Part shown: piece after piece, positions 4,090-40,113 of the stretch
Layout: every line of letters begins with the position of its first letter
How positions within the stretch are numbered: the stretch's first letter is position 1
Source of the DNA: a virus
DNA: 40,113 nucleotides
Direction: 5' to 3' (one strand)
Virus genome (UHGV): UHGV-0369821
Notes under the pieces: generated by a model
Seen by the model: only the letters and a program-made list of their open reading frames with translations
Database searches by the model: none
Told to the model about the DNA's origin: nothing
Position numbers and translations under genes: made by a program

Positions 4090-4178
4090 ATCTTTATTTA
4101 TTATTAGAATCTATATCTCTCATACATATTTTATCAATAATGACTATGATTCCACACGTGATTATAGTCATAACAACA

Positions 4179-5057
4179 TCATTCATTCCCTTCTTTCTTT
4201 CTGAATATAGGTTGTTCTTCTACTTTGTTATTATCGTCAGAAAAAGCTTCCTCTTTGGAAATTGCGCCTGTCTTGATAGCATTAAAAAGGCCAATCAGCA
4301 TGACAATTTCTGATTCCTTGCAACTCTCTATCTTGTGCTTCAAATAAGCTTCAAGCATTTCTTTTGTGACCCCTATCTTCGAGAAAGCTATTACACAGTC
4401 TTCTACCCTTTGCAAAAGCGGCTTATCAGAGGCTCTAAGGGTGTTTTGGCACGCCTCGGAAGCCTCTTGTCTGATGAAGTCCGGGAGAACTGACCAAATG
4501 CACGCACGAATGCGCCTTGATGCCATGTTTGCGCAAATTTCATATATATCCCTGTCCGAGTAAAGAGCATAGCCGCCTTCTTTAGTATCTCTCCAATGAG
4601 GAACGGAAAAAGCAATCTCTCTTCTAATGTTGTTTTCTTTGTCCCAGCAGAATGCTATGCAGTCAGAGCAAATGCGGCCTTTTTCGTCCACATGTTCTCC
4701 AATCTTCCTCCAACCCGCCTCCGCATTCCCATACGCCGTTAGGCAAGCGTTTGCTAAATGGATTGTCTCTCCGGAAATGGAAGAACCACCTCTTTTGTAT
4801 TCAAAGAAAGCCGTGTTCGCTAAATGCCGAAAAGAGCAAAGCTGGCGTATCTTAGAAGAAACTTCCAGCATATTTCTCGGCATTTGTTTTGCTATATATA
4901 TAGAGGCGAGAGCTTCCAAAGATTCTTTGTTAGAAAGGACGTTGGCTAGAGGATTCCCAGCGAGAGGAGCAATCATGGGCATACTATCGCCAGCCGCAAA
5001 TGGTATTGATTCGTTTGTTTCTGACATGGCCTCATAATATCGTTTTTCCCTCCGCAT
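4179..5057 (-). CDS. hypothetical protein; possible single-strand annealing protein (weak RecT-like resemblance, mainly synteny with the nuclease)
   Basis: 292 aa, directly downstream of the exonuclease on the same strand. MPRNMLEVSSKIRQL loosely resembles RecT LPRHMTAERMIRI. The functional call is weak. Confidence 0.45.
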   Translation of the reverse strand: MRREKRYYEAMSETNESIPFAAGDSMPMIAPLAGNPLANVLSNKESLEALASIYIAKQMPRNMLEVSSKIRQLCSFRHLANTAFFEYKRGGSSISGETIHLANACLTAYGNAEAGWRKIGEHVDEKGRICSDCIAFCWDKENNIRREIAFSVPHWRDTKEGGYALYSDRDIYEICANMASRRIRACIWSVLPDFIRQEASEACQNTLRASDKPLLQRVEDCVIAFSKIGVTKEMLEAYLKHKIESCKESEIVMLIGLFNAIKTGAISKEEAFSDDNNKVEEQPIFRKKEGNE

Positions 5058-5080
5058 GCAATATTTTTCTTTTTTTTTTC

Positions 5081-5110
5081 TTGCGTATGACAGGTGACAT
5101 GTCTATAAAT
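5081..5110 (+). promoter_or_regulatory. candidate sigma70-like promoter in a divergent intergenic region
   Basis: TTGCGT, 17-nt spacer, TATAAA. Only a weak match to the -35 consensus. Confidence 0.25.
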
Positions 5111-5503
5111 AGCCGCATGCAGAAAGAACTACCACAAGAACAACTGTCGGCATTTTCTAAGTTTGCAGTCCAGAACGAAGAGTTGTGCAAGCTCATGATG
5201 CAAAGAGTGGGATTCAAAATCACTCCAATGGTTTGGAACAAAGCGAAATGGAATCCGGCTCAAATGTCTGTCAAAAAGCTCACCCACCTCCGCGCCTTTT
5301 ATCCTGCGGCATTTGGGTTAGAGGATGAGCCTAATAGCGATTTTTTGAAGTCTCTGTACTACCTCCACATTTCCAACAGAATACTTTCAGGAGAAATTGA
5401 ACCTCTTATTGAAGATAAGGATTTTGCGACCTATATGCCTTACGCCCATTTTGTTTTACCGATAGACGATTTTACAAAAAACGCCCTTTCTAAATTCATG
5501 TAA
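5087..5503 (+). CDS. hypothetical protein (start uncertain: 5087, 5099 or 5117); possibly replication-associated by position upstream of the DnaC-like gene
   Basis: ORF in the divergent orientation to the 4179-5057 gene. Several in-frame ATGs lie after a promoter-like TTGCGT-17-TATAAA. Confidence 0.4.
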   Translation: MTGDMSINSRMQKELPQEQLSAFSKFAVQNEELCKLMMQRVGFKITPMVWNKAKWNPAQMSVKKLTHLRAFYPAAFGLEDEPNSDFLKSLYYLHISNRILSGEIEPLIEDKDFATYMPYAHFVLPIDDFTKNALSKFM

Positions 5504-5512
5504 AAAACGAAA

Positions 5513-6145
5513 ATGAACTATCCACTTGACGACTATCCGCTAGAAGAAATGGAACGAAAATCTGTTCCGAGGTTGGTAAAAGACATTTTAGATTTAGACC
5601 AATTATTGAAAGGGTTAGATAAAATACCGCTAACAAGTGAAGAAGAAAAGGAAGAGTGGAGAAGGAAGGAAAAAGAGAAAGAAAGGGTGAAAGGCTGGGA
5701 AAAACGGCTAAAAGAATCAGGCGTTCCTTTAGCGTTTTACCAAGCTTGCGTTCAAAAAAAAATCGTTCAATGCAAGCTTTTCCCGGGGATGAATCAAGTA
5801 AAAGCTCGTAGCTGGTTTTTTGCCTCTTCGAAGAAAGGGAAAACCTTTTCCGCTTGCAACCTAATTGCGAAAGAATTGTGGGAGGGAAGAAGAGGGTTGT
5901 ATTTAAAGGCCGTCGACCTAGAAAGAGAATTATCAAGTTTTCGTCCTCAAGAAGAACTCTTAAGGAAATATCAAAGAGTACCTTTTCTTGTAGTGGACGA
6001 TTTTGAAGGAATGCGGATGAGTGTGAATTCATCCTGCAATTTTATAGCATTCCTCAAAAAAAGAAACGATTCCGGATTGTGCTCTTTTATTATAATGAGA
6101 GAACGTACTTTTTTTGCGGAACAGATAGAACGGGCGACTACTTGA
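5513..6145 (+). CDS. DnaC/DnaI/IstB-like AAA+ helicase loader
   Basis: ESGVPLAFYQACV matches the DnaC/DnaI sGIPkry..a.f motif. Walker A is ASSKKGKTFSA, Walker B is FLVVDDFEG. Confidence 0.65.
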   Translation: MNYPLDDYPLEEMERKSVPRLVKDILDLDQLLKGLDKIPLTSEEEKEEWRRKEKEKERVKGWEKRLKESGVPLAFYQACVQKKIVQCKLFPGMNQVKARSWFFASSKKGKTFSACNLIAKELWEGRRGLYLKAVDLERELSSFRPQEELLRKYQRVPFLVVDDFEGMRMSVNSSCNFIAFLKKRNDSGLCSFIIMRERTFFAEQIERATT

Positions 6146-6242: not shown

Positions 6243-6932
6243 CTATTGCACCCTCTTTTCAGGTATTAAAACGTTATTTAATGAATAGTATTTTTTTGTA
6301 TAGTGATATTTTTTAGAATACTTTGAATAACCTAAATTGTGATTGTAGTAAAGTTCATCTCCATACGATGAACAAGTGTATTTAGCATTATACTTTAGAT
6401 AAGAAGAGTTAGAGAAATAGGCAATTTTATTTTTATCTGGTCTTTGAAAATCGCCATAAAAAAGCATCTCTCCTTTTTTCCAAAATACAAATTTATTTGA
6501 GCCGAGGACGGCATTAACCATGTTGTCTATATCGTCATTGTTTTTCTGGATGCAATACTCACCAAAAGCTGGCAAAAATAGGTATCGGAAAAAAGTTTCG
6601 CTATCTGTTAGATCGTCTTTGTTTTTAATGCTCAAGATTCCATTATGGCAAAAGTACCAGCCATTTCCATTCCAGCCATGAACGTTTTTTTCTGAAATTG
6701 AGCCATGCGTTTTGATGCGAGCATGCAAGAGGACAACATAATCTTTTGGGATTGTGTTCCACAAATTAACAATTTCTTTTTTTAAAAGGGTACGAATAAA
6801 ATATTCTGGCTTTTCTTGGCATGTACCTCTTTTAAATGCGGCTAAAAAGAAGCCGTCAGGGTTGTTTGTGATGCAATTTTGAAAATGTTGATTGCCAATA
6901 TCTTTTTTGATTCCGTACGCGATAATACACAT
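6243..6932 (-). CDS. Ntn-hydrolase / class-II glutamine amidotransferase-like protein (GATase_4-type)
   Basis: The protein begins MCIIAYG, with Cys2 as the predicted nucleophile after Met removal, as in MCGI of GAT-II enzymes. It sits next to an amidoligase gene, a conserved pairing described for this family. Confidence 0.5.
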   Translation of the reverse strand: MCIIAYGIKKDIGNQHFQNCITNNPDGFFLAAFKRGTCQEKPEYFIRTLLKKEIVNLWNTIPKDYVVLLHARIKTHGSISEKNVHGWNGNGWYFCHNGILSIKNKDDLTDSETFFRYLFLPAFGEYCIQKNNDDIDNMVNAVLGSNKFVFWKKGEMLFYGDFQRPDKNKIAYFSNSSYLKYNAKYTCSSYGDELYYNHNLGYSKYSKKYHYTKKYYSLNNVLIPEKRVQ

Positions 6933-6947
6933 ATTGTTTTTTCTAGT

Positions 6948-7253
6948 TTAGTTTTTTCCGTATTTATCAATGATAGATTTAACGCCTAGAGTTAATTCTA
7001 GGGCTAATTTTTCTTCTTCTTGTGTTTCGTAAAATATTTTTATGAAAGTATATTGCCATTGAGGTGAATATGACATTTTCATGCCTTTTTTGATTAAATA
7101 GTTTATGACGTCCTGCCTTATCTTTCCAAATGTTTCTGCTGATAGTGTTTTTTTGTAAACATTTACAAATTCAATGTTTAAACTGCCAACCAAGGAAGAG
7201 ATGCAACACTCTAGCTTTTTCTTCTCCATTGTTGTATCGGTTTTCTTCTTCAT
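6948..7253 (-). CDS. hypothetical protein
   Basis: 101-aa ORF between the Ntn-hydrolase and amidoligase genes. Confidence 0.45.
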   Translation of the reverse strand: MKKKTDTTMEKKKLECCISSLVGSLNIEFVNVYKKTLSAETFGKIRQDVINYLIKKGMKMSYSPQWQYTFIKIFYETQEEEKLALELTLGVKSIIDKYGKN

Positions 7254-7341
7254 AGGCCGATTGCGTATAAAAAACTAATCCAAATTATTGCACCAGCAAT
7301 TAAAACAATTAAATCTTCTATTTTTTCTTTTATTTTTTTAT

Positions 7342-8592
7342 TCATATATTTTCGAGTAATTTATATAATTCTTTTGTCATACATTTTTCTCTTAGAAAAG
7401 ATATATATTTCGGAGCAATCTCCTTTAATTCTAATAATGATATTTCTCTATTCTCCATCGCGAAGAGATAAGTAAAGTAGCAAAAATCTACTATTGTTTT
7501 AATCCTTTCTTTTTTGACTGTTCCCTTGCCCCTCCTAAATTCTATTGTGGCATTATTACTGAAATTTAATTCACAATACCTATTATTCGAAATTTTATCA
7601 AAGAGGAGCTTTTGGCCTTTTGGGGATGCAGAAATAGGGTGGACGCCGTATTGTTTTAGCTCACAAACACCCGGAATTGTGAAACAGTATTGATTGTTAT
7701 CTCTTCCAAATATTTTATTAACCAGTTCGTAAGAAAGAGAGTAAAAACATTTTTTCAGCAAAAGTTCTACACTTCTTTCACACTTGATTCGTGAAACGTG
7801 AACATGTAGCCCCGTTTCTTTAGTTGATTGAGAATAAGAGCCGAATAACGGGAAAAATTCTTCGCATAGCAAATCAATAGCTCCATTTTTTTTCAACAAT
7901 GATTCAATAGGCAAAGGTCGGGTAGTTAGTTCTGTTCCTCCTCTTTCGTCACGTAAGGAGCCGTCATGCTGGAAGTAAAAAAAATTAGAAAACTTATTGT
8001 AAATAGAACGGTTTTGGTGATAAAATTCTATTTCCAACCCTACAAGGGGAGCTTTTAGGGTTGAGTTTTCAGGGATCCAACCATGAGGCCGAAAGTGGTA
8101 TCCGTTCATTTTTGTTTCTATCAAGTCTTTTTCCGAAAAATCACTTATAAGGAACTCCTTTGTGCTTAAATATCTCAAAGCCGGGAAGACATGCTCTATT
8201 ATATAACTCCACTCTTTTTCCGGGATTTGTTTTAAAGTGAAGGCATCTAAGAAGCACTTAAAGATTTTTATAAAATCACTAGAGTATTTTTGTTTTTGGT
8301 TTAGCTCTTTGTCGGGAACTGGAATTATTGTTTGAGAAAAAAAATTACACATTGCCCATAGAGTTGCGTTCCTTATCAATTTAAAATTTTTTTTCTCAAG
8401 CACAATCCCGTTTAAATCTTTAACTCCTGCAAACCGCAAAAAAGCGGTTGCTTTTCTCCTTCTTAAATACAAGTCCTTTGCTTGTTGCGTCTTGTAGCCA
8501 AAATCAAAAATTTTATTTTCACAAAACAAATAGTAATTCTCTCTTACAAATTGTTTCAGAAATTCTACTTTATCTTTTTCTTTTTTATTCAT
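7342..8592 (-). CDS. amidoligase (glutamine synthetase / GCS2 carboxylate-amine ligase-like, Amidoligase_2-type)
   Basis: LVGLEIEFYHQN (E-x-E metal site), FQHDGSLRDERGGTELTTRPL and ETGLHVHVS (H-x-H) match conserved blocks of YbdK/GCS2-like amidoligases. Confidence 0.6.
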   Translation of the reverse strand: MNKKEKDKVEFLKQFVRENYYLFCENKIFDFGYKTQQAKDLYLRRRKATAFLRFAGVKDLNGIVLEKKNFKLIRNATLWAMCNFFSQTIIPVPDKELNQKQKYSSDFIKIFKCFLDAFTLKQIPEKEWSYIIEHVFPALRYLSTKEFLISDFSEKDLIETKMNGYHFRPHGWIPENSTLKAPLVGLEIEFYHQNRSIYNKFSNFFYFQHDGSLRDERGGTELTTRPLPIESLLKKNGAIDLLCEEFFPLFGSYSQSTKETGLHVHVSRIKCERSVELLLKKCFYSLSYELVNKIFGRDNNQYCFTIPGVCELKQYGVHPISASPKGQKLLFDKISNNRYCELNFSNNATIEFRRGKGTVKKERIKTIVDFCYFTYLFAMENREISLLELKEIAPKYISFLREKCMTKELYKLLENI

Positions 8593-10230: not shown

Positions 10231-10510
10231 ATTCCCTTTTCAAAAAAAACATATTGCTATAGTTAACGTCATAAAACAGTGAATTTCTTTTTTTCAAAAT
10301 CTCTTCAAAGGATGATTTGCTTCTTTTTTGCTCTTCTATCATTGCGGATTCAGGGAAGGCATGAGCAAAATCAATATGCGCTTCGAGGTTTGGCAATTCC
10401 TCCCCCGTTACTGGTCCTGCAAAGATAAAATAAATATTAGCGCGAACGAAAACAAAATACTTATCTTCTCTCTTTTTTTTAAAAACTTTCACAATATGTT
10501 TAGCGTCCAT
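10217..10510 (-). CDS. hypothetical protein
   Basis: 97-aa ORF that overlaps its neighbour by 14 nt. Confidence 0.45.
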   Translation of the reverse strand: MDAKHIVKVFKKKREDKYFVFVRANIYFIFAGPVTGEELPNLEAHIDFAHAFPESAMIEEQKRSKSSFEEILKKRNSLFYDVNYSNMFFLKREYEFY

Positions 10511-10702
10511 TAAGTGCGAAATTTACATGGTTAAAAAATTCTTCAGGCGATAAAAAAGTAAAGATAGTCTCGTAAGTCTTCTGCCTCCGTTACTAATTCC
10601 AAAGCGTATTGTTTTACGCCTTTTTTCCATTTAGTTCGGGCGGGGCTTTTCAATATTTTTTTATTACTTCTTCTCTGTTGTTTTTTCATTTTATTTTATT
10701 CT

Positions 10703-10942
10703 TTATTTTATTCTTTTCTTCATGCCTTTTACTAACTCGCTCGCCCGTTTATAGACGTTATCCTTAGTTCCTACGACAAAGGTTTGCCAACCGCAATTCA
10801 TGCACCCGTATTCATAACTTCCCTTAGGATTCTGCAATGTCTCATAAACCAAAACGTCCATCGGAAGCCAGCAAAATGGGCATCGCAACTTTTTAAATTT
10901 CTCTTGTTTCTTTTTTCCCATGTTTTTTGTTTTTTCTCTCAA
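10703..10942 (-). CDS. zinc-ribbon protein
   Basis: CPFCW...CMNCGW gives two CxxC pairs in 79 aa. It is the first gene on the minus strand leaving the divergent hub. Confidence 0.5.
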   Translation of the reverse strand: MREKTKNMGKKKQEKFKKLRCPFCWLPMDVLVYETLQNPKGSYEYGCMNCGWQTFVVGTKDNVYKRASELVKGMKKRIK

Positions 10943-12030
10943 GGGGTCTTTCTCTATTCTTCCTTCCGTCCCCTTTCATGTTTTTATTCTATCTTTTTTC
11001 CCTCATAAGTCAACAACTTTTATTTCTTTTTTTCTCAATTAGCAAGTTTTTTTCTCTCCCTCTAACCTCTTGACAAACTGCTTTTTCCTCTCTCCCTTCC
11101 CTCCTCTTTGCCTTACTTCCTCCCTCGGGGGGGGCCTTTAGGGGGGGGGCAACTCCTAACTCCATCGGATAACTCCATCCTTTTTCTCGATGCGGCTTCT
11201 AACCTCTTCCCGCTCCTCTTCGCTCTCTTGACCTTTCCATCGGTCAGGAGGGCGTAAGGGGCGTAAGCGGGGGAGTTAAACCCCGGCCGGGACGAACCAG
11301 TTTGCCCTCTTCCTTAAAAATGGTTTCTCCCATAGTGGACCCTCTTTTGCCATTTTTACGTGTTTTTTTAGGCGGATCCGTCATAAGTAGCAAACTGTTA
11401 GAGGCTAGCGAATTTTAAGAAAACCTGTGTTCCTAGGGCTTGCCAAAAATCGGGTTTTGTGCATGTTTCATGTTTATTTTCTCTAGATTGTCTCGCTCTT
11501 GAGTGTTTTTTGTAGAGCCTCGGCGATTCGGTGCGTGCTTTGAGCGGCCTTCAAACTGGCTCAAAAGCGTACCGATTCCGTTGCATTTGGGCGCCTTCTG
11601 CCTGCTTCTGCTTGTGTGCGCACCGACAATCTTCATAACTCGTTGACTGTCTATCATACTTCGCATAACACACATAATGCCAAATAGGGCACATTTGAGG
11701 ACAATCCCGAATATCGCGCTACAATGGGCCTAGCGCGCGCCGCATATCTGCCATGAGTAATGTATAGGCCCATCCTCTAAAAAGCCCGTGTGCGCAATCC
11801 TCGCAAGCCGTTTTTCGGGCAAATCGTAGTAATTAGAATAATTATTGAGGTTTTGCCCACTTTAGGCCATGTTGCGGCGTTGCTTCGGAGCCACCTAGCC
11901 ATGAGGGACTGCAAGCCCGTCAGCACCGCGCCACCCCTAGGTGCTTCTTGCTAGGACGTCCCTACAGGCGGGAGGCGGGGAAAAATCGCCGGGTGTTTCG
12001 CGCTGGACAAAGAAGGTATCACCCTGCATA
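10943..12030. promoter_or_regulatory. 1-kb non-coding divergent hub: CT-rich tract, G8 and G9 runs, GC-rich core with a 9-bp inverted repeat; candidate divergent promoters and origin
   Basis: No credible ORF. Transcription direction and purine/pyrimidine skew both switch here. G8 at 11127-11134 and G9 at 11141-11149. Inverted repeat ATGGGCCTA (11724-11732) / TAGGCCCAT (11765-11773). Confidence 0.5.
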
Positions 12031-12492
12031 ATGAGCAAAAAGGGAGAAGAGAAAGAGAACAAAGAAATGGCGAGAAGAGCAGGAGACGTAGAGATGAACG
12101 GGAAATTAGTGAGAGAGTTGGTGGAAGAAGTGAGGGGGGAATTGGAGCGAGGGGAGGTGAGGACGGTAGAGGAGGCGTTATCGAAGCGAGGAGTGAGCCG
12201 GAAGCTGTTTAGGGAGATGGGAGGGATAGAGGAGTGGAAGGGAGAGAGGAGGAGAGGCGAGAGAGGAGGAGAGGAGCGGGAAGAGGTAGAGGAATTGGGG
12301 AAAGAGGAATTGGGGAAGTTTTTAAGTAGAGTGATAAGAGGGAGGGAGCTAGGGATGGGGGGAAAGGAGAAGATGAGTGCGGTAGGGTTGTATATGAGGT
12401 TGAAGGGATGGGACAAGGTGAAAGAGGAGAGGGAGGAGCTGGTAGGAGAGGAGATGAGAGAGTTGCTGAAAAAAGACAAAGAGAAGAGTTGA
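12031..12492 (+). CDS. highly charged (E/R/K/G-rich) low-complexity protein encoded almost entirely by purine codons
   Basis: In this frame, third positions are A/G except where the amino acid forces a pyrimidine (Asp, Asn, Phe, Tyr, AGY Ser). T and C fall at position 2 for Val/Leu/Met and Ala/Thr. That frame-specific pattern argues for real coding. Confidence 0.45.
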   Translation: MSKKGEEKENKEMARRAGDVEMNGKLVRELVEEVRGELERGEVRTVEEALSKRGVSRKLFREMGGIEEWKGERRRGERGGEEREEVEELGKEELGKFLSRVIRGRELGMGGKEKMSAVGLYMRLKGWDKVKEEREELVGEEMRELLKKDKEKS

Positions 12493-12526
12493 AGAAGAGG
12501 AGGAGGAGAGATAAACTAAAGAGGAG

Positions 12527-13168
12527 ATGAGAAAAGGGTTGGACGAAGTAAAGATAAGGAAAGAAGAGCTGGAACATGGCTTTTTGAGGGGGGTGAAGGA
12601 GATGGTGAGGCAGAAGGTGGAGATGGGGTTAATGCCATGGGGGCGGCGGGTATTTTATCCGAAGATGGTATTGAGGGCGAGGCCGCAGAAGTTGAGGGAT
12701 TTTTTGATAGAGGAGGAGGTATGGGAGTTGCAGGAATGGAGCAAGGATTCATTGGAGAGCAATCCTGAGCGGCACCATTTGTACGAATGCGGAGGGAGGT
12801 ATTATATGGGATTGTACTTTAAGAGTACGAGGGGGCGGAGCATAAGGAGGAAGATAAGTTTAGGGACAAGGGAATTGGAAGAGGCGAAAGAGAGGAGGGA
12901 CGAGTTTTATAAAGAGTGGAGTGGGAAGGGATTGAAATGGTATATGGCAGACGGGGCGAAATGGAATATGAAGTTACCGGGAGTGCCGGAGGTAGGAGAG
13001 TTGAGCAAATTAGACAAAAGGGCGCGGAAGGAGACGGAAGAGGCGGCGGTACAGGCGTTGAAGGAAGCGCGGGAGAGTTGGAAGAGGATGAGGTGGGAGC
13101 AAGTGAGGAAGGAGGAGTATTGGGAGGCAGAGGAGAAGAGGAGCCGGAGTTTAAGGAAATGGAAATAG
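12527..13168 (+). CDS. charged protein with an integrase-type / AP2-like DNA-binding motif
   Basis: GGRYYMGLYFKSTRGRSIRRKISLGTRELEEAKERRDEF resembles the three-strand-plus-helix integrase N-terminal / AP2 DNA-binding module. No recombinase catalytic domain follows. Wobble positions are purine-forced. Confidence 0.5.
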   Translation: MRKGLDEVKIRKEELEHGFLRGVKEMVRQKVEMGLMPWGRRVFYPKMVLRARPQKLRDFLIEEEVWELQEWSKDSLESNPERHHLYECGGRYYMGLYFKSTRGRSIRRKISLGTRELEEAKERRDEFYKEWSGKGLKWYMADGAKWNMKLPGVPEVGELSKLDKRARKETEEAAVQALKEARESWKRMRWEQVRKEEYWEAEEKRSRSLRKWK

Positions 13169-13179
13169 GAGGTAAGGAG

Positions 13180-13377
13180 ATGGAAAAAGAAGTAGGAATA
13201 ATGGTAAAGTTTGGGAAAGGAAGGGTAATGGAACTGCATTTGTTTCCGAACAAGGAGGCAATGAGGAAGTGGCGAGGAGAGGACAGCGAGCAAGACGCAG
13301 AGGGGGAGTACCGGGAGTGGAGCGTACCGTTGGGGGTGATAGAGGACTTATGGGCGGCGGCGATGGGAGAGGAATAA
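13180..13377 (+). CDS. small hypothetical protein (65 aa)
   Basis: AGGAGGT lies 7 nt upstream of ATG 13180, immediately after the stop of the preceding gene. Wobble positions are purine-only. The upstream part of the listed 12916 ORF overlaps gene 12527-13168 and is treated as spurious. Confidence 0.4.
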   Translation: MEKEVGIMVKFGKGRVMELHLFPNKEAMRKWRGEDSEQDAEGEYREWSVPLGVIEDLWAAAMGEE

Positions 13378-13401
13378 AAAATTAGAATAATAATAAAAAG
13401 T

Positions 13402-13968
13402 ATGAAAATAATCGTAGACATAGGGCATGCGCGGAACACAGGAGCGCGAGGGAACGGGCTGGAAGAGCACGCAGTAAGCGAGGAGATAAGCAAAGAGTTG
13501 GTGAGGGAGTTAAAGGCGGCAGGGTATGAGGTAGTTGAGTTGGACTTTCCGCACCTTAGTAACGCGAAGGACTTGGAAGCGACGATAAAAGAGGCGAATC
13601 GGATGGGTTCGGATATAGGAATATCGTTGCACTGCGACAGTGCAAGTCATTGGGTAGGAGGGGAAGAAGAGGCGAACCCTAAGCCGCATGGAGGGCATGT
13701 GTGCTACTATCCTGGGAGCAGTAAGGGGAGGAAGTTGGCAGAGGCGGTAGGAGTGCGTCTTAGCGGGCTATTGCCTGGGCGAGCAGAGGCAGTGGTAGGG
13801 AGGAAGGACTTGGCGGTATTGAGGCGAACAAGGCCGGTATGGATATTGTGTGAGTGTGGATTTATAACGAATCCGGGAGATGCGGAGGTGATGAGGGAGC
13901 ATCCGGAGAAGATAGCGAGGGCGATAAGCGAAGGAGTGAAGGATTATTTGAAATATGCAAGAGATTGA
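13402..13968 (+). CDS. N-acetylmuramoyl-L-alanine amidase (Amidase_3 family) endolysin
   Basis: MKIIVDIGHARN (cf. IVIDAGHGG), GYEVVEL, DIGISLHCDSA (cf. ADLFISIHAD), VLRRTRPVWILCECGFITNPGDAEV (cf. VLR.T..P.VLvE.GFisN..D). No signal peptide. Confidence 0.85.
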   Translation: MKIIVDIGHARNTGARGNGLEEHAVSEEISKELVRELKAAGYEVVELDFPHLSNAKDLEATIKEANRMGSDIGISLHCDSASHWVGGEEEANPKPHGGHVCYYPGSSKGRKLAEAVGVRLSGLLPGRAEAVVGRKDLAVLRRTRPVWILCECGFITNPGDAEVMREHPEKIARAISEGVKDYLKYARD

Positions 13969-14446
13969 TAAAGAGGGAGTTGGAGAGCTTGTGCACAGCA
14001 TTGCGCACGGGGACAAGTGGGAGGAGGTTGAGGACAGGAAGAGTTGTTGCGTATGGGTAATGAGGAGCAAGGACAAGTTTCTTGTGAGGGAGGGGGTATT
14101 AAAGAAATGGCCGAAAAGGGGCTGGAAGGGGCGAGCATTAAGCAAAGGAGGGAAATGCTATGCGCAATCGGCAGACAGCATATTGAAGGAGGCAGAGGTA
14201 GAATGGGAAAGGAAGCCGGAGTATGCGCACATGTACTATAGCGGGATGCTGGGAGGAAAGGCGGCGAAAGACGCGACGTGTTTTTTAGAGGAAGCCAGAG
14301 TATTTAAGATGCCATTGCCGAGGGGGAGGTATAACAGCGATGCGTGGGAGTTTGTAAGGTGCCGTCTTGTAGAGGAAGTGGTAGAGAAGCCGATGGACGA
14401 CGAAATGGACATTTGGTTGAAGTACAGGAGGGACAAATGGTTTTAA
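13955..14446 (+). CDS. candidate terminase small subunit (by position and translational coupling)
   Basis: 163-aa ORF ending in ATGGTTTTAA, which overlaps the start of the large terminase. No motif-level support. Confidence 0.45.
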   Translation: MQEIDKEGVGELVHSIAHGDKWEEVEDRKSCCVWVMRSKDKFLVREGVLKKWPKRGWKGRALSKGGKCYAQSADSILKEAEVEWERKPEYAHMYYSGMLGGKAAKDATCFLEEARVFKMPLPRGRYNSDAWEFVRCRLVEEVVEKPMDDEMDIWLKYRRDKWF

Positions 14447-16017
14447 GTGAAATAATAGAGTTGCTGAAAGACCCGATGTGGCGAATATCCCATTTGTATG
14501 AGATAAAATTGACGGATGGGAACATCATTCCTTATAAGCCGAGGAAGTTTCAGGAGGAGCTTCACAGGGCCTGTTACTGTGAGGGGAAGAGGAGGTTTTT
14601 AATACCTAAGAGTAGGCGGCAGGGTTGCTCTACGGCGATTGGAGTGATGATGGCTGACATGGCGGCGTTTGAGGAGGGGTGGAAGCTGGCTTTGGTGGAC
14701 AGGACGTTAGGAGACGCGACGGAAAAGCTTACGGACATTGTGAGGGTAGCGTTGGACAGCTTGAAGAGGAAATTGCCTGGGATGTTCGACATAAGTTACA
14801 GCAAATCAAAGATAAACGTTAAGATGGTAGGAAGGAGGTCGAGCGAGATAGTTGGGGGTAAATATTTTCGAGGCAGTGGTCTTGGATTTGCGCACATATC
14901 CGAGCTTGGTACGATTGCGACCAGTGAGCCGAAGCGAGCTGCTGAAATCGTCAACGGCACATTCCCTGCGGCTAAGGATGGCTTTATCTTTGTGGAGACG
15001 ACCGTACGAGGGGGGAAGCGAGGGGTATTCTATGAGAACGTGATGAATGCGCTAAGCGTGCCGGAGGGGAAGCGAGGTGAGAAAGATTTCCATGTAGTGT
15101 TTTTGCCGTGGTGGAGCGACGAGAATAATATATCGGAGGGGGTGGAGGAGATAACGCCAGCTACGGAGAGCTACTTTGAGACGCTTAGGAGCAAGAGCGG
15201 GATTGTCGTGACGGAGGCGCAAAAGAGGTGGTGGCAACAGGCCAAGCGGCAACATGGCGTATCAATGAATGAAGAGTACCCGTCCACCTTGGAAGAGGCT
15301 TTTGAGGTCCCTATGGAGGGGGCTATCTTGGAGGCGGTGTTGGACAGGGCCATGCAGGAGGGGGCTTTCAGGAACTTGGTTTACGATAAAACGAAGCCGT
15401 GTTATTGCACATGGGATTTGGGTGCGCCCCTGAATACGATTAACCTTGTGTTTCAGTTGGACGGCCCCTTTATTAACGTCCTTGAGCTGGACAGTGGTTT
15501 GCATGCGAGCGAGCGCGTAGCAGAGCGTGTAACGAGGCTTAAAAGCAAATATCCGACCTTACAGGCGAACTTCCTTCCGCATGACGGCGGGTATATGACG
15601 GACACAGGGATGACACAGGCGCAAATGTGGCAGGAGGCAGGGTTGCCGGGCATCCAGTTGTTGCCCAAATCGAAAGACAAATGGATTGGCATCAATTACC
15701 TTTTAGGGATGTTCAACATGTTTCGGTTTGACACCAACGGTACGAGCAAAGCGTACAGTTACTGGTTGTCCTACAGGTGCAAGCCGGAGGTGGGAGAGGG
15801 AGGCGTGTTTAAGAATGAGATTGTACATGACAACGCATCCCATTGGGCAGACCCGTTGAGGTATGTTGCAGAGGCGAGGATGAACAACCTGTTGACGGCA
15901 GGAGTTGTAACGCAGGACAGCAAAGCCGGGATAACCTGTACCTTTGGGAAATATCATCGTGAGCAAAATGTTGGACATAACTGGCGGCGGGGGTTTGAGC
16001 ATACTTGCCGCATCTGA
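14437..16017 (+). CDS. terminase large subunit
   Basis: Deviant Walker A KSRRQGCST (cf. SRQLGKT of T4 gp17) and Walker B-like VVFLPWWSDE. Size and position upstream of the portal fit. The longest ORF begins at 14344, but the ATG at 14437, coupled to the upstream stop, is preferred. Confidence 0.8.
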   Translation: MVLSEIIELLKDPMWRISHLYEIKLTDGNIIPYKPRKFQEELHRACYCEGKRRFLIPKSRRQGCSTAIGVMMADMAAFEEGWKLALVDRTLGDATEKLTDIVRVALDSLKRKLPGMFDISYSKSKINVKMVGRRSSEIVGGKYFRGSGLGFAHISELGTIATSEPKRAAEIVNGTFPAAKDGFIFVETTVRGGKRGVFYENVMNALSVPEGKRGEKDFHVVFLPWWSDENNISEGVEEITPATESYFETLRSKSGIVVTEAQKRWWQQAKRQHGVSMNEEYPSTLEEAFEVPMEGAILEAVLDRAMQEGAFRNLVYDKTKPCYCTWDLGAPLNTINLVFQLDGPFINVLELDSGLHASERVAERVTRLKSKYPTLQANFLPHDGGYMTDTGMTQAQMWQEAGLPGIQLLPKSKDKWIGINYLLGMFNMFRFDTNGTSKAYSYWLSYRCKPEVGEGGVFKNEIVHDNASHWADPLRYVAEARMNNLLTAGVVTQDSKAGITCTFGKYHREQNVGHNWRRGFEHTCRI

Positions 16018-36633: not shown

Positions 36634-37062
36634 ATGTATTTGAAAGTCATTCCTCTAGTCGGCATCAATCAATATTCATCTAACTTAGCCACCCTTCCTG
36701 CGGACGCTCCTTCCGGTATTTACGAAGTAGCCTTTACAGGCAATAATCCGAGCTGCATGTACACAATTCGGGCATACAATCAAGGAGTAGGCTCAAATAG
36801 GCCTCAAACTATTCAACAGCTTGAGAATGCCAATCAACCTCTGATTGCTAACGGCGATTATCCTGACGTCTCTTTTTGGAGCTATGAGAACGAAACTGGA
36901 ACTTCTACTTTGGGAATCTCTTCCGGTAGTAACATTGTCCGAGCTTCGTGTTTCGTACACCACGTCCTCGGAGAAGAAACCAAGCTCGTAGAGCTAAGTT
37001 CCTCCGGCCAATTTACAGCGGAACAGGTAATTACAAATGTGGTAGTCAGGCAAATTGCCTAA
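36634..37062 (+). CDS. hypothetical protein (possible tail fiber accessory)
   Basis: 142-aa ORF after the tail fiber gene. Confidence 0.45.
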   Translation: MYLKVIPLVGINQYSSNLATLPADAPSGIYEVAFTGNNPSCMYTIRAYNQGVGSNRPQTIQQLENANQPLIANGDYPDVSFWSYENETGTSTLGISSGSNIVRASCFVHHVLGEETKLVELSSSGQFTAEQVITNVVVRQIA

Positions 37063-37453
37063 TATAATTTTCGTTATGATGGTGAAAATATTTTTTCAAG
37101 AGCTTGGTGAATATGATAAAGCCACATTTGTTTGTCTTCGACACAGCGATTGTCAAGACAAGACCCCAGAAGATTTGCCGGAGGATAAGCGAGAAGTATG
37201 GGAAAAACTCAAACAGGAACTTGCCTCATTAAAAGAGGATTGGATTGTCACGGAAGCTGTGCTTTTCCCGAGCCTTGATGAACCGACAGAAACGGTAGAA
37301 ATAAAAGTTTCTGCTAGACACGTCTCAATAGAACTTCCTGCGCCTCGCGTAGCTGTAAAAATTTTCACGTCACGCGAGATTCCTGCTCTAAAAAAGAAAG
37401 ACAAGGATTTGATGGAGTTCTTAAAATGGATAGCAGGAACAAAGTCAGAATAA
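37055..37453 (+). CDS. hypothetical protein
   Basis: 132-aa ORF with an 8-nt overlap to the upstream gene. Confidence 0.45.
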   Translation: MPNIIFVMMVKIFFQELGEYDKATFVCLRHSDCQDKTPEDLPEDKREVWEKLKQELASLKEDWIVTEAVLFPSLDEPTETVEIKVSARHVSIELPAPRVAVKIFTSREIPALKKKDKDLMEFLKWIAGTKSE

Positions 37454-37542
37454 ATACTCGACATGAACAACACTTCATCCTAGTATACCAACAGTTGCTA
37501 TTCCCGTAGCCACTGTATATAGGTGTTTCAATGTCATACGGA

Positions 37543-37577
37543 CAGGGCCTCTGTTAAAAGCGGAGGCCCTGTTTTTT
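37543..37577 (+). terminator. rho-independent terminator ending the structural operon
   Basis: Stem CAGGGCCTC / GAGGCCCTG with an 11-nt loop, followed by TTTTTT. Confidence 0.65.
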
Positions 37578-37590
37578 ATGCGTGTTCGGG

Positions 37591-37646
37591 CAACTTGTAA
37601 GGAAAGCTTACAAGTTGGATGAACTGTAAAGAAAAACTTTACAGTT
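37591..37646. promoter_or_regulatory. two adjacent perfect palindromes (operator-like)
   Basis: CAACTTGTAAG-gaaag-CTTACAAGTTG (37591-37617) and AACTGTAAAG-aaaaa-CTTTACAGTT (37622-37646). Half-sites are related and centres are about 30 bp apart. Confidence 0.5.
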
Positions 37647-38083
37647 GACCAAAGGCACAGGATTTGGTCTAATGCTCTTGGAAGAATTCTTTTCTTCTTT
37701 CGTTGTGCATATTCGAGCGGAGCAGCTTCGGGGTTTTTTCTCATGTTTTACCCGAAGCTGCTCTTCTTTTTTGTCTTGAAACAGGCCTGATGTAAAAAAT
37801 ATGTGTTGTATGACACAACTATAATTAACTAATAACCATATACTTATGTCACACAATGTTCCGTTTCGAGCGTTTTCGATGTCAAACTTTAGGCTTGATT
37901 TTTTGAGGGGTCAGTTGTTAAAATCTTGTTCAAGGAACAGGGCGGTTAAGTTGATTGTCTTCCTTTAACCTCTCCGGGGCTAGAAAGAAAAAGAGTTCGG
38001 ATATGGCAAGCATATCCTTCATGATTTTTCAAAAGTTTTGATTTACGCCTATCGGCTATGGAGCCAAACAAAGTTGTGGGCTT

Positions 38084-38272
38084 GGTTAGAGAAACAACGG
38101 GATTAGAAAAGAATTGGTTTAAAAACATTTCTAATTTGGAACACGTTGGTTAGAGAAAGTAGGTTAGAATAAACCTTTTAATATTTATACTTATTGATTT
38201 ATTCCTTCGTTCGGCTAACAGGTTGCATAGAGAGGTTAACAAGAGTTCCAAGTTCGAAGGTATTAGAGAAAC
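38084..38272. repeat. iteron-like direct repeats G(G/T)TTAGA(G/A)AA
   Basis: GGTTAGAGAAAC at 38084, GATTAGAAAAG at 38101, GGTTAGAGAAAG at 38148, GGTTAGAATAAA at 38162, GTATTAGAGAAAC at 38260. All lie in a 1-kb AT-rich non-coding region. Confidence 0.5.
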
Positions 38273-38513
38273 GATAACATAGACCACTTCGAAGCTATTA
38301 ACTACCGTCTCCAACCACAAAGGACGTTACACCGTATATACGCGCGTGCGAATTTATAAGAGAGCAGAAAAAACTTTTTTCCAGTGTGTATGACAATTCT
38401 AAAAGAAAAAAACATTGATTGCCCTGTCGTTTCTGTTATTGTGAAGAGGTCGCAAGGAACTAAAGCGTTAGTTTTAGGATAGTAAGCGATAAACAATAAC
38501 CACTAAAAATAAT

Positions 38514-39047
38514 ATGGCATATAAAAAAATAAACGGAGAAGACTTTCCTCAAGATAAAGTCTCAGGCTTAATCGCTCTACTGAATAGTGATCCGATTAAA
38601 TCAGCCTTTTTCGTCAAAGAGTTTGAGGATATAGTTGAATCTGGCTGGGATTTGGAACCTGACTGTAATGTTTGGTACAGGGTAAAACCGTCAGTTCTTC
38701 AAGAAATAGATGAGCTGGACGTTTCCGAAAAAGAAAAGGAAGCAATCAAGAAAAAAGCTGCAACGATTGTCGGATGTCCTGTTTTTTATGTTGGCAAAAG
38801 AACAGATGGAGACGAAATTCTGACTGCTGGCATGGTAGAAGGACGCTATTTTGGTTTTAACAAGAAACACTTCCACAAGATTGAATCTGATGTTTATTCT
38901 AAAAATCTGAAAAAGGCCCTTCTTGTGTCCGAAAACTGGGACAAGTTCATCAAACCTCTTATTTGGGTGATTCGCGGTTTTGAGCTTGATGACTGCTCAA
39001 GTTTCCCTACCATTGTTGCGCCTAAGCTTTGTGATGAAGAAGATTAA
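38514..39047 (+). CDS. hypothetical protein
   Basis: 177-aa ORF, first gene after the non-coding region. Confidence 0.5.
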   Translation: MAYKKINGEDFPQDKVSGLIALLNSDPIKSAFFVKEFEDIVESGWDLEPDCNVWYRVKPSVLQEIDELDVSEKEKEAIKKKAATIVGCPVFYVGKRTDGDEILTAGMVEGRYFGFNKKHFHKIESDVYSKNLKKALLVSENWDKFIKPLIWVIRGFELDDCSSFPTIVAPKLCDEED

Positions 39048-40037: not shown

Positions 40038-40113
40038 CAATCCCCTATGTTCGCTTGCCTTATGATGTCGCTGGCGATATGTGGAGGAGCATGTTGGTAT
40101 ATTGGAGAACTGG
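40038..40113 (+). CDS. 5' end of a membrane protein gene continuing past the window
   Basis: MFACLMMSLAICGGACWYIGEL begins hydrophobic. Partial. Confidence 0.2.

Follow-up and report, generated by a model that had tools for sequence, protein, structure and literature searches.

A ~510-bp stretch of non-coding DNA at positions 37878-38385 of the window (the whole 40,113-nt stretch of DNA analysed) is conserved between two diverged lineages of human-gut phages, and the comparison of these lineages indicates that it is a functional element belonging to no described family. The same block contains a cluster of short words that the initial annotation had read as the classic architecture of replication-origin iterons or clustered regulator binding sites. 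The array as first described is a weak feature, while the element that contains it is real. The best explanation, held only tentatively, is that the block is transcribed, as a non-coding RNA or as a leader, and controls the gene cassette in which it lies.

The comparison of the core involves essentially two haplotypes (lineages A and B) plus one deletion variant. Lineage A, which includes the window, has homologues of the downstream 177-aa protein that are 84-94% identical, and lineage B has homologues that are 47-55% identical. Between the two lineages, identity is ~90% over the BLAST-aligned core (90-95%) and 85-99% in 100-nt windows, as against 50-68% in 100-nt windows of the adjacent gene; within lineages, the core is 99.1% (B) and 98.7% (A) identical. 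In nucleotide terms, the core is changed at 5-10% of its positions between lineages. The 177-aa gene is 60% identical between A and B and 89.6% within B; the corresponding values are 85% (in-frame) and 99.1% for a DUF5856-like gene, and 83% and 98.3% for a 130-aa gene. Across five flanking genes, fourfold-degenerate sites are diverged by 0.34-0.62 between the window and L008; for one tail gene, L015 and L011 show a far lower fourfold-degenerate divergence of 0.11-0.12. Because the core is 90-95% identical while flanking silent sites are 34-62% diverged, near saturation, the block is under purifying selection at the nucleotide level over ~500 nt. In particular, 123 consecutive nucleotides (37989-38111) are identical in both lineages, except for a single loop change that one haplotype of type A shows and a replaced segment in L071 and L093. 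The selection argument rests on the diverged lineage B together with silent-site divergence; a judgement of ultraconservation of the gap from three contigs is invalid, as those genomes are 98% identical throughout.

The block lies within a gap of 1,060 bp (37454-38513) between a 132-aa gene (37055-37453) and the 177-aa gene. The region had been described as a ~1-kb AT-rich non-coding region that precedes a new plus-strand gene set, and this description holds: the gap is gene-free in every relative, extends over 940-1,130 bp upstream of the 177-aa gene in each genome carrying that gene, has a GC content of 0.36 with AT rising to 80% at 38150-38210, and is followed by a gene set that begins at 38514. 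Six-frame stop counts leave no frame of the gap open under any single stop reassignment, and none of its ORFs is preserved between lineages, except one possible micro-ORF of 29 aa (37879-37968). This frame is 50-59 aa long in lineage B, and four of six within-lineage polymorphisms are synonymous, faintly suggesting that it might be coding; past position 37968, the block contains no conserved ORF. Some gene callers place minus-strand ORFs of 89, 81 and 152 aa in the gap; these were rejected, as they have no inter-lineage homology or are broken by indels. Further, ARAGORN finds no tRNA or tmRNA, the gap sequence has no nucleotide match among 50,697 phage records, and there is no 10-11 bp periodicity of the kind expected from phased A-tracts or DNA curvature. 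A DGR-like template or repeat was also rejected, with matches elsewhere in the genome of 13 nt at most.

The window is a complete phage genome of ~40.1 kb that is circularly joined, position 40113 running into position 1 in the near-identical contigs L001 and L002. Its layout resembles that of podoviruses. The portal shares ~22% identity with T7-type connectors; also encoded are a large terminase, a scaffold or protease, a major capsid protein, internal virion protein(s) and a 1430-aa protein with a tail-nozzle domain. Genes on the minus-strand arm specify a RuvC-like resolvase and a DUF2800/PD-(D/E)XK exonuclease, and a further one has a weak match to an IstB/DnaC-like ATPase. Among the proteins scanned, no match to a DNA polymerase or primase family was seen beside this weak ATPase match, and no integrase was found. 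Because most genes lack a Shine-Dalgarno sequence and the relatives are human-gut metagenome sequences, a Bacteroidota-type host is likely. A crAss-like virion RNA polymerase with its promoters was considered and rejected: the DFDxD motif is missing from all four large virion-protein ORFs checked (301, 652, 1430 and 2058 aa), and the 2058-aa protein has no match in a PDB sequence search.

A ~2-kb cassette sits between tail-associated genes and late genes in one clade of podovirus-like phages (~40 kb) from the human gut; the cassette consists of the variable 132-aa gene, two terminators and two palindromes, a TGTATGACA box, the block, a second TGTATGACA box and the 177-aa gene. The more distant relatives L030 and L031 are both without the 132-aa gene, the entire gap and the 177-aa gene. 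Their gene order is giant tail protein, tail fibre, a 142-aa gene (L031 only), DUF5856-like gene, 130-aa gene and endolysin, and in L031 the DUF5856-like gene starts 3 nt after the 142-aa gene. The same RuvC and exonuclease genes are still found in L031; the L030 locus stops short of that module. Since L030 and L031 share the flanking genes but miss the region, the latter is an optional element, a cassette that has been inserted into the late operon. Morons are autonomous promoter-gene-terminator insertions in late operons, and their control regions are normally short. The cassette is similar to a moron in that it is present or absent among relatives, lies between late genes and after terminators, and carries a fast-evolving gene; in contrast, its non-coding part is ~0.8-1 kb long and far more conserved than the gene.

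The product of the 177-aa gene is diverged to ~50% identity between lineages. It and its neighbours have no Pfam, PHROG, NCBIfam or PDB match, except a weak DUF5856 match, and the 177-aa protein itself has no winged-helix or HTH match. Structural models of this protein reach a pLDDT of 40 (single-sequence) and 55 (alignment-based, AlphaFold), and Foldseek returns nothing with E < 0.46 for the model. A non-coding part that is near-invariant across samples, beside a gene that diverges to 50% amino acid identity is a pattern typical of host-interaction or anti-defence loci.

The flanks of the block contain several recognisable signals (Table 1). The first of the two terminators marks the end of the tail or late operon. 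The 9-nt word TGTATGACA is enriched genome-wide, with 17 matches versus 5.9 expected and none of 100 shuffles reaching 17; its conserved copies bracket the block, and others are found 25-31 nt before start codons in small gaps. As a guess, it may be a promoter or operator word. The Bacteroidota-type promoter TAnnTTTG is missing from the gap.

Table 1. Features of the 37454-38513 gap and the adjoining gene, in window coordinates. An empty strand cell marks a feature without assigned strand.
Feature	Position	Strand	Remarks
Intrinsic terminator	37542-37580	+	Inverted repeat ACAGGGCCTC...GAGGCCCTG, then T run; kept in relatives with small changes
Two adjacent perfect palindromes	37591-37646		Inverted repeats CAACTTGTAAG-gaaag-CTTACAAGTTG and AACTGTAAAG-aaaaa-CTTTACAGTT
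Second terminator	37720-37773	+	13-bp hairpin and T run; stem fully re-paired in the other lineage, 18-nt loop conserved
Box 1, TGTATGACA	37807-37815	+	Invariant in all relatives; TATAAT follows
Conserved non-coding core	37878-38385	+	From alignment of relatives; ~510 bp
Possible micro-ORF, 29 aa	37879-37968	+	ATG coincides with start of invariant block; left edge of block
Long-range inverted repeat, 5' arm TTAACCTCTC	37965-37974	+	Pairs with 38230-38239
Invariant hairpin, GGATATG-gcaag-CATATCC	37999-38017		z = -2.5; sole substitution in loop; terminator-like when read on the minus strand
Word copy 1, GGTTAGAGAA	38084-38093	+	In exact 13-mer 38082-38094; invariant in relatives
Word copy 2, GATTAGAAAA	38101-38110	+	Invariant in relatives
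Inverted copy, AATTAGAAAT	38127-38136	-	Complementary to direct copies; AATTAGAACT in lineage B
Word copy 3, GGTTAGAGAA	38148-38157	+	In exact 13-mer 38146-38158; GGTTAGATAA in most lineage-B genomes
Word copy 4, GGTTAGAATA	38162-38171	+	TGTAAGAATA in lineage B, core lost
AT-rich stretch, 80% AT	38166-38210		Most variable part of the core between lineages
Long-range inverted repeat, 3' arm GAGAGGTTAA	38230-38239	+	Pairs with 37965-37974
Word copy 5, TATTAGAGAA	38261-38270	+	TGTTAGCGAA in lineage B
Perfect alternating pyrimidine-purine run, CGTATATACGCGCGTGCG	38333-38350		CG-unit length varies between genomes
Box 2, TGTATGACA	38387-38395	+	Conserved in relatives; 118 nt upstream of the 177-aa gene
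177-aa gene	38514-39047	+	Fast-evolving, acidic C-terminus; inherited together with the block

The initial annotation had counted five copies of G(G/T)TTAGA(G/A)AA within 190 bp. Taken exactly, this consensus (GKTTAGARAA) has only two matches in the window, starting at 38084 and 38148, each of them within an identical 13-mer, TTGGTTAGAGAAA, whose two occurrences are 64 bp apart. The count of five stands when up to two mismatches to GGTTAGAGAA are allowed: plus-strand copies then begin at 38084, 38101, 38148, 38162 and 38261, with start-to-start spacings of 17, 47, 14 and 99 bp, and those at 38101, 38162 and 38261 have two differences each (8 of 10 bases shared). A sixth TTAGA core is inverted. 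Tandem Repeats Finder reports no tandem array.

The shuffling test that had been proposed for this cluster comes out in its favour, as five copies are found in none of 5000 dinucleotide shuffles of 38084-38272 (maximum 4). Moreover, the genome's densest cluster of TTAGA is located here (6 in 190 bp versus 98 in 40 kb, both strands; Poisson 9e-6), a cluster that ranks sixth among all 5-mers. The word was picked after viewing the sequence, and the correction for this choice left the word free when the 1,060-bp gap was shuffled. A cluster of the same strength then appears in 7-10% of gap shuffles for any 5-mer, in 2.5-5.5% for any 8-mer with one mismatch, and in 7.5-8.5% for any 10-mer with two mismatches; an exact direct repeat of at least 13 nt appears in 2.8% of shuffles. 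Overall, the word cluster is real, yet only marginally beyond chance.

Comparison with related phages, another check that had been suggested, points to a conserved non-coding functional element in the region, but it does not clearly extend to the individual words, as copies 3, 4 and 5 are altered in lineage B. Specifically, copy 3 is changed at motif position 8, copy 4 is without its TTAG core, copy 5 has TTAGC in place of TTAGA, and the inverted copy differs by one base. Copies 1 and 2 are unchanged in all haplotypes, but they lie in or beside the fully invariant stretch of 123 nt. Across 38084-38272, there are 6 changes in the 60 nt of word positions versus ~17 in the remaining 129 nt; the word positions are protected no more clearly than their surroundings. 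A weight matrix built from the six word copies was applied to segments acquired by individual genomes. A 53-nt insertion specific to lineage B holds GGTTAGCAAC and GTTTAGCAAA, two weak matches (P = 0.013). In a natural variant (L071, L088 and L093), 38024-38081 is replaced by a shorter sequence with CTTAGAATA and an inverted GCTTAGACC; the L071 replacement has one weak plus-strand match, TCTTAGAATA (P = 0.15), and its inverted copy is below threshold. The matches in acquired segments score 5.8-5.9 bits versus at least 9.2 bits in the six copies. Judged from these patterns, the words are possibly functional.

The same measurements bear on a reading that is possible, though doubtful, in which the block is functional and the word cluster is incidental, a by-product of A/G-rich conserved sequence and one duplicated 13-mer. 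The corrected shuffle tests (2.5-10%) are consistent with it, as are a stated consensus that fits two copies only, word positions that are altered about as often as their surroundings between lineages, and the low scores of the matches in independently acquired segments. It would have to accommodate the densest TTAGA cluster in the genome, a 13-mer duplication that is exact and kept in lineage A, the invariance of copies 1 and 2 in all haplotypes, and the return of TTAG words in inserted and replacing segments.

In the tentatively preferred reading of the block as a transcribed RNA or leader, the upstream operon would terminate and transcription would restart at box 1, so that the block would be made as a long non-coding RNA or an untranslated leader. 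Its function would be carried by the sequence of the block, and not by a very stable fold. Pairing or recognition by proteins would be the task of the GGUUAGAGAAA-type words, together with the one complementary copy UUUCUAAUU, and via these words the RNA would set the expression of the downstream gene set, the 177-aa gene first. In this scheme, the use of box 1 as a promoter, the transcription of the block, its strand and any role of the words are read from sequence features.

In favour of such an RNA are the constraint on almost all bases of the block, the terminators upstream and the TGTATGACA boxes on either side, whereas the missing TAnnTTTG promoter speaks against it. Structure predictions give a mixed picture of such an RNA. 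Pairing between 37965-37974 and 38230-38239, 255 nt apart, is kept through two compensatory double changes and one G-U change. These two covarying pairs belong to the same helix and to a single evolutionary event (the A/B split), 128 of the 144 predicted pairs never vary, and the minus strand has as many or more apparent compensations. The lineage-B insertion self-pairs in an 8-bp stem. Compared to dinucleotide shuffles, the folding energy has z = +0.37 (plus strand) and -0.27 (minus strand), indicating no excess stability; column-shuffled alifold yields z = -2.9 (plus) and -2.4 (minus) against a null that is weaker than dinucleotide shuffles. In the L071/L093 variant, which lacks or replaces 38024-38081, the arms of two predicted helices are gone and their partners are unchanged, and in L090 a further predicted pair is lost through a G-to-A change. 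Rfam 15 has no match in the whole window at gathering scores, and a permissive search (E up to 5) of 37300-38650 yields only chance-level matches (E of at least 0.85).

Several known systems provide partial parallels. In phi14:2, a crAss-like Bacteroidota podophage, long intergenic regions give rise to long non-coding RNAs at levels exceeding those of most genes (doi 10.1101/2020.03.07.982082). The phage in the window is likewise of podovirus type, with a probable Bacteroidota-like host and unusually long gene-free gaps, but it has no sequence relation to phi14:2, is ~40 kb long and carries no DFDxD motif in the four large virion-protein ORFs checked; transcripts of its gap are a proposal. If true, the RNA reading would add to the few hints of abundant long non-coding RNAs in Bacteroidota-type podophages, of which phi14:2 is the main example. 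GOLLD and ROOL are large phage-associated structured RNAs. The block is like them in having several hundred nucleotides of conserved non-coding phage sequence, with insertions that form self-contained hairpins; unlike them, it has no Rfam match, no excess folding stability and almost no covariation. Phages P4 (CI RNA, with seqA/B/C targets) and P1/P7 (c4 RNA) use RNA-based regulatory leaders. Similar to these, a long untranslated leader would precede the gene set, with short direct repeats and a complementary copy that are able to pair; the likeness is architectural only, as processing sites, an immunity function and lysogeny genes are not known here.

A more specific form of the RNA reading is possible but speculative enough to be doubted: the block would be an undescribed phage non-coding RNA or RNA-based control leader of ~0.5 kb, in an optional cassette with a rapidly diversifying gene, and the GGUUAGAGAAA-type words would be pairing or protein-sponge elements that, for example, time or protect the expression of a gene for host interaction or anti-defence. 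Should the block indeed be a functional RNA or control region, it would be an unexplored regulatory module in abundant, uncultured human-gut phages.

Rather doubtful is the alternative that the block acts as DNA, as a complex promoter/operator for the cassette, with the GGTTAGARAA words bound by a regulator of phage or host origin and the TGTATGACA boxes as promoters; this corresponds to the regulator-site part of the initial annotation. Five direct copies and one inverted copy in 190 bp, never equalled in the naive shuffles, would suit such a regulator, as would two best copies that are identical 13-mers, the invariance of copies 1 and 2, and the weak additional matches in the lineage-B insertion and the L071 replacement. 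Its position also fits, with the block directly upstream of the gene set and downstream of the terminators. However, once the free choice of word is corrected for, significance is no better than 2.5-10%; between lineages, half of the six copies are altered within the word; and the searches of the neighbouring proteins revealed no DNA-binding domain. Moreover, 500 near-invariant nucleotides, including 123 repeat-free invariant bases, far exceed the needs of binding sites.

A replication origin, in which the words would be iterons for an initiator and the 80% AT stretch at 38150-38210 an unwinding element, is improbable. Classical iterons, such as those of the lambda ori and of plasmids P1, F, R6K and pPS10, are 17-22 bp long, near-identical, regularly phased, and located beside or inside the initiator gene. 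What the region shares with iteron origins is a short word present in several direct copies in non-coding DNA, with an AT-rich stretch beside them (after copies 3 and 4) that differs in sequence between lineages but not in composition. Strong conservation of the non-coding region is also consistent with an origin, and the missing polymerase or primase family among the proteins scanned implies that host machinery needs recruiting somewhere. In contrast to classical iterons, the units are 10-13 bp, degenerate and irregular, with spacings that have no helical phasing and no tandem array; no site for the DnaA box TTATCCACA with up to one mismatch is found in 37454-38513. The initial annotation had advised looking for an initiator gene nearby, and family, PDB and fold searches of the neighbouring proteins reveal no initiator-like domain; the 177-aa protein is 50% diverged while words are unchanged, and the candidate loader gene (5513-6145) is ~7 kb off around the circular map. 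Further, the region is missing from relatives that keep other functions (the RuvC and exonuclease module in L031, the late genes in L030 and L031), and cumulative GC skew has no turn at the region. As the region has neither a gene of initiator type nor a DnaA box, and its repeats are neither evenly spaced nor 17-22 bp long, it is unlikely to be a classical iteron origin, and the claim of classic iteron architecture retains only its AT-rich stretch; an adjacent initiator of unrecognisable type is possible. For annotation in general, a visually convincing "iteron array" may pass a naive shuffle yet fail an origin's defining features.

A packaging or terminal region, either a pac or cos site or short repeat arrays like those found beside the terminal repeats of T7 DNA, is very improbable: the podovirus-type layout (T7-like portal, nozzle domain, internal virion proteins) and the long conserved non-coding region with irregular arrays of short words speak for it, but the terminase gene (14344-16017) adjoins the other long gap (10510-11937), ~16 kb away on the circular map (22 kb along the window), the region is missing from L030 and L031, and there is no sign of fixed ends at the region, because genome-length contigs of relatives have starts that bear no relation to one another and are continuous across the ends of the window. 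Two other candidates were rejected. Against host-derived sequence or an attP site, there is no integrase among the proteins scanned, and a 17-mer of the block has 38 chance hits in 185,579 species genomes, none extendable. ToxIN-like type III toxin-antitoxin arrays are composed of tandem repeats of ~36 nt followed by a ToxN-family gene; here there are no tandem repeats, and the 177-aa protein has no Pfam match.

Minor observations concern the surroundings of the block. The 5-nt loops of the two palindromes between the terminators are inverted between near-identical genomes, and the second palindrome is copied in another intergenic gap of the distant relative L030. At the same hotspot as the cassette, L003-L005 carry a Lar-like anti-restriction gene.

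The conserved core block of the 1,060-bp non-coding region (37454-38513) begins exactly at the ATG of a possible micro-ORF, which reaches 50-59 aa in lineage B, the second of the two phage lineages that carry the 177-aa gene, because its stop codon is replaced by TGG. Within lineages, four of the six polymorphisms in the micro-ORF are synonymous. Further into the block, window positions 38024-38081 are otherwise invariant, and yet a natural variant is in circulation in which this segment is deleted or replaced; in three relative contigs (L071:960-1830, L088 and L093), the substitute is shorter and forms a hairpin. Near the block's right end lies a perfectly alternating pyrimidine-purine run, whose number of CG units varies among genomes.

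Coordinates of features in the non-coding regions and the minus-strand arm
Feature	Coordinates	Strand	Size or content
Possible micro-ORF	37879-37968		29 aa; MSNFRLDFLRGQLLKSCSRNRAVKLIVFL
Perfectly alternating pyrimidine-purine run	38333-38350		18 nt; CGTATATACGCGCGTGCG, with palindrome CGTATATACG inside
Two adjoining perfect palindromes	37591-37617, 37622-37646		10-11 bp each, 5-nt loops
TGTATGACA sites	4118, 7375, 37532	-	
TGTATGACA sites	5084, 6232, 37807, 38387	+	
Plus-strand ORF pair	5000-6145	+	167 aa, then 210-aa IstB/DnaC-like ATPase
Adjacent amidoligase-like and weak class-II glutamine-amidotransferase-like genes	6243-8592	minus-strand arm	416 aa and 229 aa
First long gene-free gap	10510-11937		~1.4 kb; T-rich, loose T/C-rich repeats

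To the left of the block, the loops of the two adjoining palindromes are flipped (GAAAG/CTTTC and AAAAA/TTTTT) among genomes that are otherwise near-identical, and a copy of the second palindrome is present at 5735-5761 of L030, a more distant relative, within another intergenic gap. Together, the loop inversion and the L030 copy suggest either that the hairpins are extruded and the template is switched there, or that the palindrome is a site of binding. The neighboring terminator hairpin (37720-37773) has been rebuilt between lineages; in particular, all of its 13-bp stem is re-paired with other bases in lineage B, while its 18-nt loop, GTTTTT(T/G)CTCATGTTTTA, is kept.

The word TGTATGACA, which brackets the block, is enriched across the genome, with 17 sites at one mismatch or fewer versus 5.9 expected. 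The sites at 4118, 5084 and 7375 are located 25-31 nt ahead of an ATG, and the word could be a promoter or operator motif of the phage. It is found in small intergenic gaps, often with a TATA-like word after it.

The 177-aa gene that follows the block (38514-39047) is the fastest-evolving gene in its neighborhood, with a between-lineage nucleotide identity of 60%; within lineage B, its nucleotide identity is 80-100% and that of its neighbors is 98-99%. The acidic C-terminus (EED) of the protein is invariant, and searches of families and folds matched it to no known family or fold.

Elsewhere, the amidoligase-like and amidotransferase-like genes may jointly form a nucleotide or DNA modification module. 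The plus-strand ORF pair is embedded in the minus-strand arm, where it overlaps a minus-strand ORF (5496-6032); its plus-strand reading is favored by the local GC skew, and the pair may encode an initiator and a loader. Moreover, the endolysin gene (13402-13968) is upstream of the terminase gene in the window genome, and downstream of a 130-aa gene in the more distant relatives L030 (5975-6529) and L031 (4484-5062); its placement differs, and it has therefore been relocated within the family.

The first long gene-free gap, rather than the second, is where a packaging site would more naturally be expected, or else an origin or early promoters. It separates the divergent minus-strand arm from the lysis, terminase and structural arm. 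The GC content is ~0.31 at 7-10.5 kb and jumps to about 0.5 in the region from 12000 to 16000, where the plus strand is extremely purine-rich (the GC skew reaches 0.77 and the AT skew 0.46) and dense in AGAGGAG clusters; the ORFs covered by this region include the endolysin gene and the beginning of the terminase gene.
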